From: Escherichia coli
GTDB taxonomy: Bacteria; Pseudomonadota; Gammaproteobacteria; Enterobacterales; Enterobacteriaceae
Assembly: GCF_001677475.2 (NCBI RefSeq)
Contig: NZ_CP015229.1
Direction: 5' to 3' (one strand)
DNA: 64,000 nucleotides
The notes under the pieces: model-generated
What the model was told of the DNA's origin: nothing
Databases searched by the model: none
What the model saw: only the letters and a program-made list of their open reading frames with translations
Position numbers and translations under genes: made by a program
Shown here: one piece after another, positions 1-14,743 of the stretch
Layout of the letters: each line of letters begins with the position of its first letter
How positions within the stretch are numbered: the first letter of the stretch is position 1

Positions 1-234
1 CTGGCCTGGGCCTCCAGCGCCGGGATCATCAGCCTGCTGTTTATTTTTGTCGCCTACCAGCCTGGCGTGGAAAACCAGACCGCCAGTTCGCTTGGCGGGA
101 TCGCGGCGATGGAAACATTACTGCCTGCGCTATTCCACCTGCTGCTGGCAGGGGCGATCCGCTTTTGCAAACTCAATAATCCTATGATGTCACGCATAGC
201 TACCGACCTGCGTCAGCGTCATGTACAGCCTTAA
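1..234 (+). CDS. 3' fragment (C-terminal 77 aa) of a membrane transporter, possibly a sugar:cation symporter; 5' end lies outside the window
   Basis: Open frame from position 1 to TAA at 232-234; translation is hydrophobic (…IISLLFIFVAYQP…LLPALFHLLLAGAIRF…) like a terminal TM helix pair; sits immediately upstream of a glycoside hydrolase gene. Family assignment is a guess. Confidence 0.45.
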   Translation: MAWASSAGIISLLFIFVAYQPGVENQTASSLGGIAAMETLLPALFHLLLAGAIRFCKLNNPMMSRIATDLRQRHVQP

Positions 235-244
235 GGAGCACAAG

Positions 245-2215
245 ATGAACATTTCGGAAGTCGATCTGCATAAACTGACGGTCAGCGATCCGTTCCTCGG
301 TCAGTACCAACAACTGGTCCGCGACGTGGTGATTCCTTATCAGTGGGATGCCTTGAACGATCGTATCCCAGAAGCGGAACCCAGCCATGCGATTGAAAAC
401 TTTCGCATTGCCGCCGGACTTCAGGAGGGTGAATTTTACGGGATGGTGTTTCAGGACAGCGACGTCGCCAAATGGCTGGAAGCGGTAGCCTGGTCGCTGT
501 GCCAGAAGCCGGACGCCGAACTGGAAAAAACCGCCGACGAGGTAATCGAACTGATCGCCTCCGCCCAATGCGAAGACGGCTATCTCAATACTTACTTTAC
601 GGTAAAAGTACCCGAAGAACGCTGGAGCAATCTGGCGGAGTGTCATGAACTTTACTGCGCCGGTCATCTGATTGAAGCCGGAGTCGCCTTCTTCCAGGCC
701 ACGGGCAAGCGGCGCTTGCTGGAAGTGGTTTGCCGTCTGGCCGATCATATCGACAGCGTATTTGGTCCAGATGAAAGTAAGTTACACGGTTACCCTGGTC
801 ACCCGGAAATTGAACTGGCACTGATGCGTCTGTATGAAGTGACCGAAGAGCCGCGCTACCTGGCACTGACGAACTATTTTGTCGAACAGCGTGGTGCGCA
901 ACCGCACTATTACGACCAGGAATATGAAAAGCGCGGGCAGACCTCGCACTGGCACACCTACGGCCCGGCGTGGATGGTGAAAGATAAAGCCTACAGCCAG
1001 GCGCATTTGCCCATCGCACAGCAACAAACCGCCATCGGACATGCAGTACGCTTTGTCTATCTGATGACCGGCGTCGCGCATCTCGCGCGTTTAAGTCACG
1101 ATGACAGCAAGCGTCAGGACTGCCTGCGGCTGTGGAACAATATGGCCCAGCGTCAGTTATATATTACCGGCGGCATTGGCTCGCAAAGCAGCGGCGAAGC
1201 GTTCACTAGCGATTACGATCTGCCGAATGACACGGTATACGCTGAAAGTTGCGCCTCCATCGGCCTGATGATGTTTGCCCGACGAATGCTGGAAATGGAA
1301 GGCGACAGTCAATATGCCGATGTGATGGAGCGCGCACTGTACAACACCGTGCTCGGCGGCATGGCGCTGGATGGCAAACATTTCTTCTATGTGAATCCGC
1401 TGGAAGTACATCCAAAATCGCTGAAATTCAACCATATCTACGATCACGTTAAACCGATCCGCCAGCGTTGGTTTGGCTGCGCTTGTTGTCCGCCAAATAT
1501 CGCCCGCGTGCTGACCTCGATTGGTCATTATCTCTACACGCCGCGTGAAGATGCGTTGTATATCAACATATACGCAGGAAACAGCATGGAAGTGCCGGTA
1601 GAAAATGGCACGCTGCGCCTGCGGGTTAGCGGGAACTATCCGTGGCAGGAGCAGGTGACGATTGCGGTTGAATCGCCCCAGCCGGTACGTCATACGCTGG
1701 CTTTACGTCTGCCGGACTGGTGCACACAGCCGCAGATCATATTGAATGGGGAAGAGGTCGAGCAGGATATTCGTAAAGGGTATTTGCACATTACCCGCGA
1801 ATGGCAGGAGGGCGATACGCTGAATCTGACTTTGCCGATGCCGGTACGCCGCGTTTACGGTAACCCGCTGGTGCGTCACGTCGCCGGAAAAGTGGCGATT
1901 CAGCGCGGCCCGCTGGTGTATTGCCTGGAACAGGCCGACAACGGCGAGTCACTGCATAATCTGTGGCTGCCCACCGATGCGCCATTTACGACATTTGAAG
2001 GCAAGGGATTGTTTAGCCATAAGATCTTAATCCAGGCACCGGGTTACCGGTATGAACAGAGCAATCCAGAGCAGCAACCGCTGTGGCATTACGACAGCGC
2101 GCCAGCCAAACGCCAGACGCAAACTCTGACCTTTATCCCGTGGTTTAGCTGGGCCAACCGGGGTGAAGGCGAAATGCGGATCTGGGTGAATGAGGAAAAG
2201 CATTGCCATCCGTAG
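245..2215 (+). CDS. Glycoside hydrolase family 127 (DUF1680) protein, beta-L-arabinofuranosidase-like
   Basis: ORF in track 221..2215; I place the start at ATG 245 (MNISEVDL…), 8 nt after AGGAG at 233-237. Contains the Cys-rich motif WFGCACCPPNIAR typical of HypBA1-type GH127 enzymes. Not part of K-12 gene order at this position as I recall it. Confidence 0.8.
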   Translation: MNISEVDLHKLTVSDPFLGQYQQLVRDVVIPYQWDALNDRIPEAEPSHAIENFRIAAGLQEGEFYGMVFQDSDVAKWLEAVAWSLCQKPDAELEKTADEVIELIASAQCEDGYLNTYFTVKVPEERWSNLAECHELYCAGHLIEAGVAFFQATGKRRLLEVVCRLADHIDSVFGPDESKLHGYPGHPEIELALMRLYEVTEEPRYLALTNYFVEQRGAQPHYYDQEYEKRGQTSHWHTYGPAWMVKDKAYSQAHLPIAQQQTAIGHAVRFVYLMTGVAHLARLSHDDSKRQDCLRLWNNMAQRQLYITGGIGSQSSGEAFTSDYDLPNDTVYAESCASIGLMMFARRMLEMEGDSQYADVMERALYNTVLGGMALDGKHFFYVNPLEVHPKSLKFNHIYDHVKPIRQRWFGCACCPPNIARVLTSIGHYLYTPREDALYINIYAGNSMEVPVENGTLRLRVSGNYPWQEQVTIAVESPQPVRHTLALRLPDWCTQPQIILNGEEVEQDIRKGYLHITREWQEGDTLNLTLPMPVRRVYGNPLVRHVAGKVAIQRGPLVYCLEQADNGESLHNLWLPTDAPFTTFEGKGLFSHKILIQAPGYRYEQSNPEQQPLWHYDSAPAKRQTQTLTFIPWFSWANRGEGEMRIWVNEEKHCHP

Positions 2216-2330
2216 GTTGGATAAGGCACTCGCGCCGCATCCAACGTAAGGAGCACATTGCCTGATGCGACGCTTAACACGTCTTATCAGGCATACAAGT
2301 CGGTGCGAGAGCGTAGGCCAGCCGCACCGA
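2216..2330. repeat. REP/BIME-like palindromic units between convergent GH127 gene and yiaT
   Basis: Palindromes gttggat…atccaac (2216-2245), gcctgatgcgacgc…gtcttatcaggc (2260-2292), cggtgcg…cgcaccg (2302-2330); the middle unit matches the canonical REP form. Confidence 0.6.
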
Positions 2331-2344
2331 CATCCACCGGTGAA

Positions 2345-3085
2345 TTAAAAACGCCAGCTCACGCCGGTGACAAAGGTAAAACTCTCATTACGATCAATCA
2401 TCGGGCTGTCGGTAATCTCTTCCGGCAGCTCGCTGTATCCTGCGCTCGCCATCAATACGACGTGCTCTCCTATCGGGTATTTTGCCGTCAGGCTGACATA
2501 GGGCACCCAGGAATCCTGCGCGGAATAACTTGCCAGACCGCTACGACGGGACTCACTCTCTGAAATGCCATAGTAATAGTCACTGAAATTCTCGTCATAA
2601 TAGAGAACGCCCAGCGCAGGTGTCAGCGACAGACGACCTATCTGCATTTTGTGGAATACCGATAGCTCCCCCACCCAGCCGTTGCTGTTATCCAGAACGT
2701 CCGCAGCTGCAGAGGCTTTCACGGTTCCCCAACGCTCGTGGTGATACCAGGCAACCCCCGCCATAGCCGTACTATCACGCTTATCAAGCTGTTGCATGGC
2801 ATAATCGTCATTATCGGCAGGGTCAAATTCCAGCGGCATCCAGGATGCGGTCAGGCTAAGTTCATTTTTTTCACTTTGCGACAGAATAAAACCTAACGTG
2901 GTCTGACGAACATAAAAAGAATCACCTTCATAACTAATCAGGGGAATTGCCTTTGTATTTTCATTATAACCGCGATAAGGCGATTCATTATAAGCCGCAC
3001 CGGCACCAATGGATAATTCAGAAGCAGTTGCGCTTGCCATAAAAGGCAACGCAAATAACGCCACAATATTGCGGTTAATTAACAT
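2345..3085 (-). CDS. yiaT: MipA/OmpV-family outer-membrane protein YiaT
   Basis: 246-aa ORF; sequence recognised as YiaT (MLINRNIVALFALPFMASA… signal peptide, ends …GVSWRF aromatic C-terminus typical of OM beta-barrels). Confidence 0.85.
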   Translation of the reverse strand: MLINRNIVALFALPFMASATASELSIGAGAAYNESPYRGYNENTKAIPLISYEGDSFYVRQTTLGFILSQSEKNELSLTASWMPLEFDPADNDDYAMQQLDKRDSTAMAGVAWYHHERWGTVKASAAADVLDNSNGWVGELSVFHKMQIGRLSLTPALGVLYYDENFSDYYYGISESESRRSGLASYSAQDSWVPYVSLTAKYPIGEHVVLMASAGYSELPEEITDSPMIDRNESFTFVTGVSWRF

Positions 3086-3208
3086 GTCCGGTATTCCATT
3101 TTAAAATAAGATAAAAAAGAGTCGGCATAGTAATGCTTACAATTTCTCCGGTGCAAGATTCATATTTATATAGTAATATATAAAATTATATATAATTGGG
3201 CTGTTGCG

Positions 3209-4183
3209 ATGACAAAATTACAACTTAAGTACCGGGAGTTAAAAATTATCTCGGTAATCGCTGCCAGTGAAAATATCAGCCATGCCGCGACTGTACTTGG
3301 CATCGCACAGGCCAACGTCAGCAAATATCTTGCTGATTTTGAATCAAAAGTAGGTTTAAAAGTCTTTGACCGAACCACCCGGCAACTGATGCTCACACCT
3401 TTTGGTACCGCGCTGTTGCCATACATCAATGACATGCTGGACAGAAACGAGCAGCTTAATAATTTTATTGCAGATTATAAGCATGAGAAACGTGGTCGGG
3501 TCACTATCTATGCACCAACCGGCATAATTACCTATTTATCCAAACATGTAATCGATAAAATTAAAGATATCGGTGATATCACCTTATCGCTAAAAACCTG
3601 CAATCTTGAGCGTAATGCCTTTTATGAAGGCGTCGAATTTCCCGATGATTGTGATGTTTTAATCAGCTACGCTCCACCAAAAGATGAATCGCTGGTTGCC
3701 AGTTTTATTACGCAATATGTCGTAACCGCTTATGCCAGCCAGCGCTATCTTGAGAAACATCACATTAGCCGTCCTGACGAACTCGAACATCACTCCTGTA
3801 TTTTGATCGACTCAATGATGATCGACGACGCGAATATCTGGCGCTTCAACGTCTCCGGGAGTAAAGAGGTGCGGGATTATCGTGTGAAGGGAAATTACGT
3901 TTGCGACAACACGCAATCGGCGCTGGAGCTGGCACGAAATCACCTGGGGATTGTGTTTGCGCCAGACAAAAGTGTGCAGAGCGATCTGCAAGACGGCACG
4001 CTGGTGCCCTGCTTTCAGCACCCGTATGAATGGTGGCTGGATCTGGTGGCTATCTTCCGTAAACGGGAATACCAGCCCTGGCGGGTCCAGTATGTGCTGG
4101 ATGAAATGCTGCGTGAAATTCGCCACCAGCTTGCTCAGTCGCAGCAACTGCGGCCTGAACAAGCGGCGGAAAGCGAAGATTAA
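3209..4183 (+). CDS. yiaU: LysR-family transcriptional regulator YiaU
   Basis: 324-aa ORF with N-terminal HTH (…[38 protein letters not shown]…); divergent from yiaT, ATG at 3209. Confidence 0.85.
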
Positions 4184-5316
4184 TGATCGAGATAAAGGTA
4201 ATGCACCCAGCTGGTCATGCGTAATAACACTTTGCGCATCACCGAGACATGGCTGAAATGATCGGAGTAGACCGCCACCTGGGCGTAAATACCGTCTGGT
4301 AAAGCGCTCAAATCAGTATGCTCATCCAGTTCAATGGTCGCGATAACGCCATCTGAACCCGGCGCTGTGTTTAACGTCTGTAAGGTACCGGTCGACTGAT
4401 AAGCTCCACCGGGAACAGCTGGACTAATGGCTGCCAGCTTACCGCTGAATACCTTACCTGGCAGAGCATTAAACACCACTTCCGCATCGTCACCAGGAGC
4501 CAGTCGCAGCAAGGAGTTCTGACGGAACTGCGCCACGATTTGTCGTTTCTGATCGGGTATAAACACCATCACCGGACGTAGCGGCAGCGACGCGGCATAG
4601 GTACCCGGACGAATCAGGACCTGGGCCACGTAACCATCGCTCGGCGCACGCACTATCGTCTGCTCAAGGTTATATTTTGCTTCCGCGAGCTGCGCTTTCA
4701 GGCTGGCGATTAGAGAATGTTCACCCAACACCAGGCTATCCAGCTGGCTCTGGACCTGTTTTTGTTCCGCCGCCGATGACTTTACGGAGGCTTCCTGCGC
4801 CAGATAATTTTGCCGCGCCACATCAATATCGCGTTCTGAAAACGGGTTTACTTTCGCCTGGCTGCCGCGTGCGTAACGCTGATACTCTTTAGCGAATTTA
4901 TCCCGCGTGGCCTTTGCCTGCTGAGTATTCGCCGCCATCTCATCTAACTCTGCGCCCAACGCCCGCTGTTTATGTTCTGCGGTAACGATATCCGCCATCA
5001 GCCGATCCACCCGCGCCTGATAACGCGTCGGGTCCAGTCGAAAAAGCACCTCGCCTTTTTTAATCAGCGTATTTTTCTTATCCGTCACTTCAATCACCAC
5101 GCCTGTCACCTGTGGGACAACAGGGATGGAAATAACCGCTTTTTGCGCTTTAAAGGTATACGGATGGTTATAGTTCATTAACAGAATTAAACCGCTGACA
5201 ATAAATATTCCCCCCAGGGCCGCTGTGGGAATGGTCCATTTATTTACAGGAATTTTGAAGATCTTAAACATTGCCCATGCGAAAGCCACATAGGTCAAGA
5301 TAATCAGTAAATCCAT
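4180..5316 (-). CDS. yiaV: HlyD-family periplasmic adaptor (membrane-fusion) protein YiaV
   Basis: 378-aa ORF; N-terminal TM helix, coiled-coil middle, barrel-sandwich/biotinyl-like C-terminal region; ATG at 5316 lies 5 nt after the yiaW stop. Confidence 0.85.
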
Positions 5317-5321
5317 AAGTA

Positions 5322-5645
5322 TTACTCGGCAGAAGAGGATTTGATGTCGGCGAGCTGTTTCTCCAGCCCGGCAATACGCTGTTGTAGTTGCACAACGGAG
5401 GAGTCATGGTTTTGCATTCCCCATCCCCGCTCCGGGCGGTAAAGCGTGGCCCAAATCCACAAAAATGGCCAGATAACATGCAGCGTAAAAAGACTCACCC
5501 AACCAGCGACATGAATGGCGTCGGCATGAGGATGATTACGTTTTTTAGCAATCAGGTAGGGAATATCATGTAAAATAATAATCCCATAGAATATCACCAG
5601 AAATACAAAAATAAGCACTCCCAGTGCAAAATAATCCAGGAACAT
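5322..5645 (-). CDS. yiaW: Small inner-membrane protein YiaW (DUF3302-like)
   Basis: Track ORF 5322..5675; I choose ATG at 5645 ([13 protein letters not shown]…, 107 aa) with GAGGG upstream; two predicted TM helices plus a C-terminal coiled-coil tail. Confidence 0.8.
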
Positions 5646-6066
5646 ATTTCCCTCAGAGAATATAAAAAAGAACAATTAACGCATATTATGAAATGCCATG
5701 ATGCAGTGCAATTTCCTTATTTATATAACGACATATTGTTTTTTATATACTTTCTGAAGTGTGCTGCCTGGCTTTTCAGCAGGTCGAGGCTTATCATATT
5801 GAAATAATGGAACTATTGACAAAACTAATGAATAACTCCAGTAAAACATCCACAGTACAGATAAAGCGTATTAAACCTTCAATTATCTACCGTTTATTGC
5901 TGATTGGCCTCGGAACACCAATGGTGATTTACGGCCTGGTTCGCCCGCTCACCATCGAAACGCGAGATTAAACTCCTGGCAAAACACGCCCCAGAAACGC
6001 ACTTCTGTTGGCGTAGTCTGGGTTATTGCGCACGTAGGTTTAAAACGTAAATTGTAACAAAGTGCG

Positions 6067-6148
6067 CTTTGTTTATGCCGGATGCGGCGTGTACGCCTTA
6101 TCCGGCCTACGGTCAGGTCCCCGTAGGCATGATAAGACGCGTAAGCGT
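6067..6148. repeat. REP pair (BIME) downstream of aldB
   Basis: gccggatgcggcgtgtacgccttatccggcctac and gtaggcatgataagacgcgtaagcgtcgcatcaggc: canonical inverted REP units. Confidence 0.65.
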
Positions 6149-6189
6149 CGCATCAGGCAATGAATACCCAATGCGACCAGCTTCTTATA

Positions 6190-7728
6190 TCAGAACAGCC
6201 CCAACGGTTTATCCGAGTAGCTCACCAGCAGACACTTGGTTTGCTGATAATGCTCCAGCATCATCTTATGGGTTTCGCGTCCGATGCCCGACTGTTTGTA
6301 GCCGCCAAACGCCGCATGTGCCGGGTAAGCGTGATAACAGTTGGTCCACACGCGCCCGGCCTGAATGCCGCGCCCCATCTTATAGGCCAGATTACCGTTG
6401 CGGCTCCAGACGCCCGCGCCCAGGCCATATTGCGTGTCATTCGCCAGCTCCAGCGCCTCTTCCATCGTTTTGAAGGTGGTCACCGCCAGCACCGGGCCAA
6501 ATATCTCTTCCTGGAACACACGCATATTGTTCTGACCAAACAGAATCGTCGGTTCGAGGTAGTAGCCGTCTTTCAGTTCGCCTTCCAGCAGCTTGCGCCG
6601 CCCGCCGGTAAGCACATCTGCGCCCTCTTTTTTGCCGATATCAATGTAATTGAGGATGGTTTCCAGTTGCCCGTGAGATACCTGCGCGCCCATTTGCGTC
6701 ACGCTGTCGAGCGGGTTACCGCTACGAATGCTTTCAACACGACGGATGGCGCGTTCCATAAAGCGTTCGTAGATAGACTCCTGCACTAAAGCACGGCTTG
6801 GACAGGTGCAAACTTCGCCCTGGTTGAAGGCGAACAATGCAAAGCCCTCCAGCGCCTTATCGAAGAAAGCATCTTCTTCATCCATCACATCGGCAAAGAA
6901 GATATTTGGCGACTTACCGCCCAACTCCAGCGTCACCGGAATAATATTTTGCGTGGCGTACTGCATAATCTGCTGACCGACTTCCGTTGAGCCGGTAAAC
7001 GCCACTTTGGCGATACGTTTTGAGGTCGCCAGATATTCACCTATTTCGCCGCCCGCACCGTTGACCACGTTCACCACGCCTGGCGGCAGTAAATCACCGA
7101 CGATCTCCATCAAAAGCAACACTGAAAGCGGGGTAAGTCGTGCGGGTTTTAGCACCACGCAGTTGCCCGCCGCCAGCGCGGGAGCCATTTTCCAGCTCGC
7201 CATCAGCAACGGGAAGTTCCACGGGATAATCTGCCCCACCACGCCTAACGGTTCGTGGAAGTGATAAGCCACAGTTTCGCTATCGACTTCACTGATCCCA
7301 CCTTCCTGCGCCCGAATACACGAGGCGAAATAGCGGAAATGGTCAATCGCCAGCGGCACATCGGCAGCACTGGTTTCGCGGATGGGCTTGCCGTTATCCC
7401 AGGTTTCTGCCGTCGCTAACAGTTCGAGGTTCTGCTCCATCCGATCGGCAATCTTAAACAGAATCGCCGCGCGATCCTGCACCGAGGTATGCGCCCATTT
7501 GTCTTTCACTTTATGCGCGGCATCCAGCGCCAGATCGATGTCGCGTTTGCCCGAAGACGCCACTTCGCACAGTAGCTGCCCGGTCACCGGCGTCAGGTTC
7601 TGGTAATACTCGCCGTCGGCGGGTGCTACCCATTCGCCGCCGATAAAGTTGTCATAGCGAGCTTTTAACTTGAGGGGGAAACCATACTCGCCGGGCTTAA
7701 TCTGTGCTGAAGGGGGATTGTTGGTCAT
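6190..7728 (-). CDS. aldB: Aldehyde dehydrogenase B
   Basis: Track ORF is 558 aa; conserved protein begins at [17 protein letters not shown]… (ATG 7728, AAGGAGACGATC upstream), giving 512 aa; classic ALDH motifs present. Confidence 0.95.
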
Positions 7729-13241: not shown

Positions 13242-14378
13242 TCAATGATCCAAATAAAGATAATGCATCCAACTGGTCATTCTCAGCAGCACCTTCCGCA
13301 TCACCGAAACATGGCTGAAATGGTCGGAGTAAACTGCTACCTGGGCGTAAATGCCGTCGGGTAAGGCATCGATATCATCGTTGGGGTCCAGTTCAATGGT
13401 TCCCAGCACACCGTCCGTGCCGGGCACGACCGTTAATGATTGCAATACCCCCTGCGCCTGATAAGAACCGCCTGGCACGACAGGTAAAATACTGGTCAGT
13501 TTGCCGTGGAACACCTGCCCAGGTAGCGCGTTAAACACCACTTCCGCATCATCGCCGGGTTTCAGACGTAACAGCGAGTTCTGCCGAAATTGGGCGACAA
13601 TTTGCCGTTTTTGCTCGGGGATGAAAACCATCACCGGACGTAGCGGCAAGGCAGCTGCGTATGTACCTGGGCGGATCAGTACCTGAGTAACGTAGCCATT
13701 GCTTGGTGCGCGAATGACAGTCTGCTCAAGGTTATATTTTGCTTCAGTAAGTTGCGCTCTTAAGCTCACAATCTGCGACTGCTCGCCGTTAACCATACTG
13801 TCGAGCTGGCTCTGGATCTGCGCCTGCTCCGCCACCGAGCCTTTCACCAGCGCGTCCTGCGCGAGGAAGTTTTGCCGCGCATCGTCGATGTCACGTTCCG
13901 AGAACGGATTCACCGCCGCCTGGCTACCTTTCAGGTAACGTTGATAATTTTTAAACAGACGGTCGCGCTCCGCTGAAACCTGGGTGGTGTTGGCCTGCGC
14001 TTCAGTGAGCTGGGCGCGCAGCGTCTTTATATTATGCGTCGCCGTCATCAGGTCAGCCTGAAGTCTGTCAACTCGCGCCTGGTAACGAACCGGGTCGAGT
14101 TTAAAAAGCACCTCGCCCTTTTGAATAAGCTGATTATTCTTGTCAGTGACTTCAGTAACAATTCCCGTCACCTGTGGCGTGATGGGGATCGCTATCACTG
14201 CCTTTTGCGCGGTAAAAGTGTAAGGATGGTTGTAGTTCATCAATAAAATCAAACCACTCACCAGAAATACGCCTCCCAACGCCGCCGTCGCCAGCGTCCA
14301 CTGATTCACCGGAATGCGGAAGATTTTAAATACTGCCCATGCCAGCGCCACGTAAGTTAAAACAATTAACAGATCCAT
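13242..14378 (-). CDS. yibH: HlyD-family periplasmic adaptor protein YibH (paralog of YiaV)
   Basis: 378 aa; co-linear with YiaV over its full length with identical C-terminus (…[33 protein letters not shown]). Confidence 0.85.
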
Positions 14379-14380
14379 AA

Positions 14381-14743
14381 TCAGATCTCCGGGAACGTGG
14401 AATAGTCACTCTTTTTTTCAGCTGCAAGTTGGTGCTCCAGCCGGGAAATACGGTCAGAAAGTGCGGCGATTTCCGGGTCAGTCACTTTCTCCTGCGACGC
14501 AACATGTGACTGCATGCCCCAGCCGCGCTCCGGTTGATAGAGCGTCGCCCAGATCCACAGAAACGGCCAGATAACATGCAGAGTAAACAGGCTAACCCAG
14601 CCCGCCGTATGAATAGCGTCGGCATGGGGATGGTTGCGCTTTTTGGCAATCAAATAAGGGATGTCATGTATCGCGATGATTCCATAAAAAATCACCAGAA
14701 AGACGAAGATCAGCACTCCCAACGCGAAGTAGTTTAGAAACAT
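14381..14743 (-). CDS. yibI: Small inner-membrane protein YibI (paralog of YiaW, DUF3302-like)
   Basis: 120 aa, [23 protein letters not shown]…; ATG at 14743 preceded by GAGG; stop 3 nt before the yibH start. Confidence 0.8.

Follow-up and report, generated by a model that had tools for sequence, protein, structure and literature searches.

The yiaW-yiaV pair of Escherichia coli: an EmrA-like adaptor with an obligate small membrane partner and a possible TolC-dependent conduit

Organization of the yiaWV locus

Tripartite efflux systems are central to drug resistance in Gram-negative bacteria and, to our knowledge, every described type includes an energy-coupled inner-membrane pump. Escherichia coli has an adaptor, in one or two copies, for which no matching pump has ever been found. 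Here, we analyzed this adaptor gene, yiaV, together with its upstream neighbor yiaW (the pair being called yiaWV), in a stretch of 64,000 nucleotides of an E. coli genome (assembly GCF_001677475.2, contig NZ_CP015229.1), which we call the window. A first-pass annotation, made from the sequence alone, had described the pair as a small membrane protein and an HlyD-family adaptor of undefined function, with no transporter partner in cis. Our results agree with this description and extend it: the two genes are obligately paired across the bacteria sampled. The strongest clue to their function, invisible to that annotation, is the operon linkage of the pair to genes of outer-membrane efflux channels in distant relatives. 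The features of the pair, in positions of the window, are the following.

5322..5645, minus strand: yiaW, coding sequence of 107 amino acids with its ATG at 5645, DUF3302 (open reading frame (ORF) list and Pfam)
5317..5321, minus strand: spacer of 5 nt between yiaW and yiaV (sequence), where proximity suggests translational coupling
4180..5316, minus strand: yiaV, coding sequence of 378 amino acids with an ATG start, EmrA-like periplasmic adaptor (ORF list, Pfam, and NCBIfam)
5649..5654, minus strand: Shine-Dalgarno-like GAGGGA 5' of the yiaW ATG (read from sequence)
5793..5822, minus strand: candidate sigma-70 promoter of yiaWV, TTGTCA-18-TATGAT (promoter scan, a consensus match only)

The ATG of yiaW at 5645 is preceded by a good Shine-Dalgarno sequence (GAGGGAAAT), and the mechanically called ORF is longer, reaching a TTG at 5675. 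The stop codon of yiaW (5322-5324) and the ATG of yiaV (5316) are exactly 5 nt apart, and a scan of this spacer revealed no terminator-like site. The extent of the pair (4180-5645), the length of YiaW, and the spacing had thus been given correctly to the base in the first-pass annotation.

The proteins encoded by yiaW and yiaV

YiaW matches the Pfam family DUF3302 (PF11742) over the entire model (positions 1-77 of 77, E-value 2.2e-43). The two transmembrane (TM) segments ascribed to it are borne out by its hydrophobic segments (residues 7-25 and 46-64) and by its AlphaFold2 (AF2) model, which has a predicted local distance difference test score (pLDDT) of 87. The model shows a hairpin of two helices (2-35 and 41-67) joined by an RNHPH turn and followed by a C-terminal helix (80-106). 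Across 100 homologues, residues P29, H38, P39, A43, S51, W59, P60, and W65 are invariant, while H26, D27, R36, H40, D42, and H56 are conserved in at least 90%; YiaW retains all the family-invariant residues. Some members of the family have an extra N-terminal TM helix after an arginine-rich segment. From this, we infer that the conserved turn of YiaW, rich in His, Asp, and Arg, is cytoplasmic and that its C-terminal coiled-coil helix is periplasmic.

Searches for relatives of YiaW outside DUF3302 gave little. No relative by fold was detectable in the PDB. Homology of DUF3302 to AaeX (DUF1656) was rejected (hhalign probability of 0.2%), and none was detectable to the FUSC pump AaeB. A profile match between residues 11-65 of YiaW and helices of the chloride-pumping rhodopsin of Mastigocladopsis repens (E-value 2.5e-4) is weak and probably reflects the composition bias of TM helices.

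YiaV matches the Pfam families CusB_dom_1 and HlyD_D23. It has the architecture of the adaptor family, i.e., a lipoyl-like domain split by an alpha-helical hairpin and followed by a beta-barrel, as judged from Pfam, the order of elements in the AF2 model (alignment of 71 sequences, pLDDT of 84), and Foldseek. The nearest NCBIfam models are EmrA/EmrK and MdtN, but the score of 111.2 bits is far below the cut-off of 390.8 for TIGR00998 and does not make YiaV a member of the EmrA/EmrK subfamily. The best Foldseek matches in the PDB are EmrA chains from cryo-EM structures of EmrAB-TolC (8zal/8zar, E-value 7e-23, TM-score 0.63-0.69), followed by MacA and AcrA, with MexA also found. In the model, the lipoyl and beta-barrel strands accompany a long hairpin (97-218, made of helices 97-151 and 161-218) and a C-terminal helix (355-374). 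Between the hairpins of YiaV and EmrA, the alignment has only one gap, of two residues, and the tips are similar. The tip of YiaV, EYQRY..G....VNPFSE.DI.VAR, is conserved at nearly all positions in 28 Enterobacterales homologues. Among 56 more distant homologues (less than 50% identity), the mean identity to YiaV was highest in residues 1-50, at 0.48, then 0.42 in the C-terminal helix, and 0.15 in the hairpin, which is the least conserved region and varies in length.

The inner-membrane anchor of YiaV is predicted to consist of two helices (2-19 and 28-50) instead of one. The loop between them carries the motif FK.FK.P.NKW, or a near variant, in all 136 of the 136 partners of DUF3302 genes. 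In YiaV, this loop of 11 residues has a net charge of +2.9 and no acidic residue. Under the positive-inside rule, and given that the adaptor domains are periplasmic, this suggests that the loop is cytoplasmic, and hence that the N-terminus lies outside and the anchor is a TM hairpin. The alignment with AaeA begins at residue 33 of YiaV, which marks the first TM helix as the extra element. As far as sequences tell, a conserved extra N-terminal membrane helix distinguishes the whole YiaV family, of which YiaV itself retains all the invariant residues.

Pairing of the two genes across bacteria

DUF3302 is a family of moderate size, with 883 representatives at 50% identity. Most of the representatives looked up lie on contigs of 1-2 kb with scant context, and a scan of genome contigs, of which the best 80 matches were kept, returned only Enterobacterales. 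We describe the pairing in the first 86 loci fetched, which contain 95 DUF3302 genes and come mostly from Enterobacterales, with some alpha- and gammaproteobacterial and metagenome contigs. The co-occurrence of the two genes, proposed as a check in the first-pass annotation, was clear. A YiaV-type gene lies directly 3' of the DUF3302 gene and on the same strand in 83 of the 95 cases. The distance between the two ranges from -29 to +16 nt, and 77 of these 83 pairs have a gap of 2-5 nt. The 12 unpaired genes are explained by contig ends, one IS5 insertion, and one artefact of start calling. The same order, DUF3302 gene (W) and then adaptor gene (V), was found in 80 metagenome loci. Hence, the yiaW-yiaV type of pair is an obligate two-gene pairing, and the tight coupling proposed for the E. 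coli genes is reflected in an arrangement kept across all 83 pairs.

Adaptors of this kind are expected to be encoded with an energy-coupled inner-membrane transporter. We clustered the neighbors of over 200 pairs, drawn from several phyla and covering Enterobacterales, alpha- and gammaproteobacterial replicons, and metagenome loci, and found no recurrent ABC, MFS, RND, or FUSC gene near the pair. In other words, the absence of a transporter in cis, first remarked in E. coli, holds for every lineage sampled.

Linkage to outer-membrane channels in distant relatives

Genes of outer-membrane efflux proteins (OEP) are linked to the pair in a distant subgroup, whose proteins are 47-55% (W) and 33-40% (V) identical to those of E. 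coli. Three-gene operons of the order OEP-W-V occur in loci L003, L087, and L088 (Reichenbachiella metagenome-assembled genome, Bacteroidota), and of the order W-V-OEP in L090 and L092. Since L087 is flanked on both sides by genes of the opposite strand, its operon consists of exactly OEP, W, and V. A metagenome scan seeded with this channel-linked subgroup, and thus a biased sample, returned marine and sediment contigs as its best 80 matches. Together with the five individually fetched loci named above, these gave 38 informative loci, and the OEP gene adjoins the pair in 26 of them (23 W-V-OEP and 3 OEP-W-V); the other 12 have none on either side. Two of the three OEPs tested exceed the cut-off of the NCBIfam model TIGR01845 (NodT), with 238.8 and 231.5 against 210, and the third has the NodT model as its best match. 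In a Persicobacter replicon, the order is W, an insertion sequence (IS), V broken into two ORFs, and OEP.

We found no conventional pump in the operons that combine W, V, and OEP. Classical tripartite systems keep the pump gene beside the adaptor gene, and the outer-membrane factor (OMF) is often encoded in trans; AcrAB, EmrAB, and MacAB all use TolC. The linkage in these distant clades reverses that pattern: the OMF is in cis and the pump is not.

Other transporter genes lie in the vicinity of some of these operons. In L090, a classical FUSC-OEP-DUF1656-AaeA-like operon (1-4851) lies 3 kb upstream of the W-V-OEP operon on the same contig. A classical operon of FUSC, OEP, DUF1656, and adaptor genes near W-V-OEP was also observed in L102 and L139. 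A CPA gene resembling those of K+/H+ antiporters comes after OEP, in the same orientation, in 10 loci of one marine subclade; L109 has part of an 11th copy. This CPA gene encodes about 405-413 amino acids (e.g., L090 9716-10933 and L141 8753-9994), and the copies are 64-79% identical to each other. In another lineage (L129/L134, 3887-5107), a CPA copy of 30% identity lies around 850 nt upstream of W. The Na/H exchanger beside the pair in L007 is unrelated to this gene. We rejected the CPA gene as the missing pump, as it recurs only in one syntenic subclade besides the L129/L134 copy, and keep it as a lead.

The paralogous pair yibI-yibH

The first-pass annotation overlooked a second pair of the same type in the window, found by tblastn of YiaV and YiaW around 9 kb from yiaWV.

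14381..14743, minus strand: yibI, paralogue of yiaW, 120 amino acids, around 75% identity by tblastn and 79% in a MAFFT alignment
13242..14378, minus strand: yibH, paralogue of yiaV, 378 amino acids, 76% identity

The gene yibI lies 2 nt upstream of yibH. The two pairs differ in distribution: of the 5426 complete E. coli genomes, 5406 carry yibIH and 3800 carry yiaWV. In other genera of Enterobacterales, the homologues of YiaV are closer to YibH (79-93% identity) than to YiaV (73-79%), with a few about equidistant. The YiaV type itself (at least 86% identity) is restricted to the aldB-yiaU locus of Escherichia, Citrobacter, and Pseudocitrobacter. From these comparisons of sequences, yiaWV is an accessory, lineage-specific paralogue of the core pair yibIH. 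We also observed that yibF abuts yibH in this strain; hence the rhsA-yibA-yibJ-yibG island that intervenes in K-12 is absent here.

To describe selection on the accessory pair, we compared it with orthologues of Escherichia whittamii and Citrobacter. The ratio of nonsynonymous to synonymous substitution rates (dN/dS) was 0.02-0.05 for yiaV and 0.03-0.11 for yiaW. Such low values indicate that both are real genes under strong purifying selection, and neither chance ORFs nor genes in decay.

Gene neighborhood of the pairs

Two genes beside yiaWV had been pointed out in the first-pass annotation.

3209..4183, plus strand: yiaU, LysR family (LpsR), context of the pair and not a demonstrated part of the module
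2345..3085, minus strand: yiaT, MipA/OmpV family, divergent from yiaU, a lineage-specific neighbor

The first-pass annotation called yiaU a divergent LysR regulator. This is right with respect to yiaT alone; with respect to yiaWV, yiaU is convergent, and its stop codon overlaps that of yiaV in TTAA (4180-4183). ExcludonFinder names yiaU-yiaV among excludon gene pairs, i.e., neighbors with overlapping transcription. The two genes are not conserved partners of the pair. Direct adjacency of yiaT-yiaU to the pair is limited to the Escherichia/Citrobacter group (Escherichia, Citrobacter, and Pseudocitrobacter). In five Enterobacteriaceae loci (labelled Enterobacter, Lelliottia, Leclercia, and Huaxiibacter), yiaT-yiaU lies around 5.6-6.8 kb away, and it is absent at the loci of Serratia, Yersinia, Rahnella, Buttiauxella, and Pantoea. 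The YiaU (LpsR) study, which combined RNA-seq of a knockout with ChIP-exo, reports yiaT, waa, and adeP as targets: yiaT rises by 2.8 log2 in the yiaU knockout, and the waa operon is activated by YiaU. The main text of that study lists neither yiaV nor yiaW. Given this and the lack of conserved adjacency, we rejected yiaU as a regulator of yiaWV, a dependence that the first-pass annotation had put forward for testing.

The flanks of the two types of pairs are distinct: mtlA and yibF-selAB for the yibIH type, and aldB and yiaU for the yiaWV type. In other genera, the neighbors include polyamine ABC permeases, a LysR gene, PqiB, a diguanylate cyclase, and LldP, among others. Some labels were assigned by eye from the sequence and carry no score, as is the case of a putative lipoprotein and a DUF1471-like protein. 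Tandem DUF1254/DUF1214 genes adjoin the pair on the same strand in L007 (4738-7770) and L085 (8254-10887, a Rhizobium sullae plasmid). We did not retain them as a clue to function, as these are two cases only.

Comparison with known systems

EmrAB-TolC is the system closest to the pair in structure. Like EmrA, which is its best structural match, YiaV has a TM anchor, a beta-barrel, a lipoyl domain, a long alpha-hairpin, and a C-terminal helix, and it lacks a membrane-proximal (MP) domain. Yet the two proteins are only 20% identical in sequence, YiaV has two N-terminal TM helices and EmrA one, and an EmrB-like MFS gene is found in cis in no lineage, the partner of YiaV being the DUF3302 protein. 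A published structural study (PMC13139468) describes EmrA, with its single TM helix, as a hexameric nanochannel in tip-to-tip contact with TolC, with one EmrB monomer per EmrA hexamer at the inner membrane.

AaeXAB resembles the pair in gene order, as a small membrane gene precedes an EmrA-like adaptor gene, and in having a LysR gene in the vicinity. Over the periplasmic domains, YiaV and AaeA share 21% identity. However, the pair lacks an AaeB/FUSC gene, no relationship of DUF3302 to DUF1656/AaeX or to AaeB could be detected, and AaeA has a single TM helix where YiaV has two. AaeXAB also has a divergent LysR activator, AaeR, whereas yiaU is convergent and has no shown effect on yiaWV. Hence, yiaWV lacks the combination that defines a FUSC system of the AaeXAB type, namely DUF1656, adaptor, and FUSC genes with a divergent LysR gene.

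MdtN is one of the two best NCBIfam models for YiaV and the best one for the two distant relatives tested. MdtNOP also has its adaptor (MdtN) and its OMF (MdtP) within one operon, as in the distant relatives of the pair. It differs in that the W-V and W-V-OEP operons have no component of the MdtO type, and the scores are far under the equivalog cut-off. Finally, YiaW could be compared with small inner-membrane proteins of efflux assemblies such as AcrZ. AcrZ attaches to the pump AcrB, its gene does not accompany that of the adaptor, and the assembly can form without it. In contrast, YiaW is always co-encoded with the adaptor, and no pump is available in cis for it to bind.

Previous reports on the four genes

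We found no functional assignment of yiaWV in the PMC literature or in bioRxiv, in keeping with the first-pass annotation; only two papers there mention DUF3302. TCDB lists YiaV as 8.A.1.1.4, 'uncharacterized', and the 2024 revision of the y-ome places yibH and yibI among uncharacterized clusters. Genomic SELEX in K-12 treats both pairs, yiaWV and yibIH, as operons and assigns them RpoD promoters, with the yiaW promoter bound by H-NS (PMC3946193).

The phenotypes reported for these genes are weak hints. Clones evolved in macrophages acquired an IS1 insertion in yiaW (PMC5495878). Deletion of yiaW raises the efficiency of Ca2+-mediated transformation, according to a second-hand report. The gene yibI is induced in urine, and its deletion in strain UTI89 gives a competitive index of 0.33 in urine and lower adhesion. 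yiaV is 1.5-fold up in mixed biofilm, and a genome-wide association study of Vibrio vulnificus flags a gene named yiaV. An effect of yiaV on drug tolerance (Hu and Coates 2005) is claimed second-hand in PMC10485832.

Possible functions of the pair

We tentatively favor a reading in which yiaWV encodes a trans-envelope conduit that depends on TolC or another OMF and whose inner-membrane part is built of the helices of YiaW and YiaV. Extrapolating from gene order and fold, YiaW and YiaV would be made in fixed proportion by coupled translation and would form a dedicated complex, the inner-membrane and periplasmic portion of the conduit. By analogy with EmrA, YiaV may form a tube of six subunits in tip-to-tip contact with TolC. 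Its anchor would be the conserved TM hairpin, with the N-terminus outside, in place of a single helix, and the helices of YiaW and YiaV, in the topology proposed above, would take the place of an MFS, FUSC, ABC, or RND pump. The OMF would be TolC, in trans, in E. coli and the NodT-type channel, in cis, in the distant clades. If such a minimal pump-less conduit exists, it would represent a new architecture of envelope transport and would give a role to four y-genes of E. coli. The obligate two-TM partner, the membrane domain specific to the family, and the distant OMF operon devoid of a canonical pump now make this picture testable.

Several observations weigh against this reading. No energy-coupling element is evident in the pair. 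The CPA gene that follows the OMF gene in one subclade could be a conventional partner there. The OMF gene is linked to the pair in no E. coli locus, nor in any other gamma- or alphaproteobacterial locus seen, and the use of TolC in E. coli is thus an extrapolation from relatives. The OMF-linked loci, coming from a biased sample, probably represent two or three clades only. In addition, yiaWV is missing from 30% of the E. coli genomes, and the mutant phenotypes in E. coli are weak or indirect: yiaW::aph alone had no effect on the association of macrophage phagosomes with LAMP1, the sole assay in which it was tested, and yibH has been used as a neutral integration site.

It is also conceivable, if somewhat unlikely, that YiaV is a spare adaptor for a pump encoded elsewhere (an EmrB-type MFS, an AaeB/MdtO-type FUSC, an ABC, or a CPA protein), with YiaW as an accessory of the AaeX or AcrZ kind. 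The families nearest to YiaV (EmrA/EmrK, MdtN, and AaeA) all serve inner-membrane pumps, and its gene is preceded by that of a small membrane protein as in aaeX-aaeA. The classical FUSC operon close to W-V-OEP in L090 and the CPA genes, whether after the OMF gene or upstream of W, can be read in the same way. On the other hand, the linkage in cis is reversed relative to classical systems, and this across phyla; DUF3302 has no detectable homology to AaeX or AaeB; and the extra conserved TM helix together with a co-inherited partner suggests a dedicated membrane assembly. The CPA linkage is moreover limited to one syntenic subclade, and the exchanger of L007 is of another kind. Were the pair to borrow a known pump, it would form a new accessory layer of TolC-dependent efflux.

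The TolC-dependent conduit that we favor also has a bolder form, which we regard as unlikely. DUF3302, the YiaV-type adaptor, and the OMF would then be a self-sufficient system without any pump, in which a ring of YiaW and YiaV hairpins acts as the translocation or gating unit. With a 6:6 stoichiometry, such a unit would comprise around 24 TM helices. Six of the 24 helices would be the equivalents of the EmrA anchors, and the other 18 could approximately fill the space that the 14-TM EmrB would take up with the six EmrA anchors around it. That the EmrA anchors encircle EmrB is our own reading of the published structure (PMC13139468). Coupling to protons or other ions might use the mid-membrane His56 of YiaW, with Trp59 and Pro60 in the second TM helix, and might also involve the His/Asp cluster of the turn (H26, D27, H38, H40, and D42). 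Such a system would be a new class of trans-envelope transporters, with yibIH as its core pair in E. coli.

The pair may have no transport function and act instead as an envelope scaffold, an outer-membrane tether, or a sensing or stress module, which we consider distinctly improbable. No substrate, pump, or ATPase is evident, and the reported links are diffuse (transformation in the yiaW mutant, urine fitness and adhesion in the yibI mutant, and biofilm for yiaV). Some neighbors are envelope proteins (DUF1471-like and the putative lipoprotein, both labelled by eye, PqiB-like, and MipA/OmpV). However, the operon partner in distant relatives is specifically an efflux channel of the NodT type, and the whole tube architecture of EmrA is kept, including the length and the tip of the hairpin.

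Lastly, the patchy presence of yiaWV compared with yibIH, the binding of H-NS to its promoter region, and the IS1 insertions in some strains and evolved clones might suggest a decaying, H-NS-silenced duplicate without a function of its own, but this is very improbable, as both ORFs are intact with dN/dS of 0.02-0.1 for dS values reaching beyond 1, no family-invariant residue has been lost, and Citrobacter and Pseudocitrobacter have kept orthologues at this locus.

Variation and other features of the region

The scan of the window against Rfam showed only elements resembling REP (repetitive extragenic palindromic)/naRNA4, and no riboswitch or leader RNA that would hint at a substrate; the regions upstream of 12 distant W-V operons had no Rfam match. 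A role in anti-phage defence was discarded, as YiaV, YiaW, and YiaT have no PADLOC matches.

For the region 2300-6000, labelled yiaT, yiaU, yiaV, and yiaW in RefSeq, 3827 complete E. coli genomes have a match at around 98% identity. For the three regions of the window tested, even the best full-length matches among the 5426 complete genomes are only around 98% identical. YiaW is 99% identical in amino acids to a protein encoded on a contig of 'Escherichia sp. MOD1-EC7003' (L008). The strain may belong to a divergent lineage of Escherichia. The whole yiaT-yiaW block is found in 3827 genomes and yiaWV alone in 3800; these nearly equal counts suggest that the four genes were gained or lost together. 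REP-type elements lie on both sides of the block (2215-2293 and 6071-6200). They correspond to Rfam naRNA4, with 58.7 bits against a gathering score of 59.5, and weaker copies are present too.

Between yiaW and aldB, a small ORF divergent from yiaW (5768-5971, plus strand) is annotated in RefSeq as the hypothetical protein WP_000885435.1 and has one hydrophobic segment, IIYRLLLIGLGTPMVIYGLV. On the other side of the block, a gene of glycoside hydrolase family 127 (221-2215) precedes yiaT and, in a matching genome, follows genes of an MFS transporter and an AraC regulator. K-12 presumably carries the yiaK-sgbE operon at this position, and the region 221-2215 looks variable between strains.

Finally, IS1 is inserted within the yiaU-yiaV-yiaW region of several natural E. 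coli genomes (NZ_CP042298.1, NZ_LR890508.1, and NZ_CP104123.1). One IS1-bearing E. coli genome is annotated with two DUF3302 fragments, which is consistent with a split yiaW, and the region may be a hot-spot for IS1.

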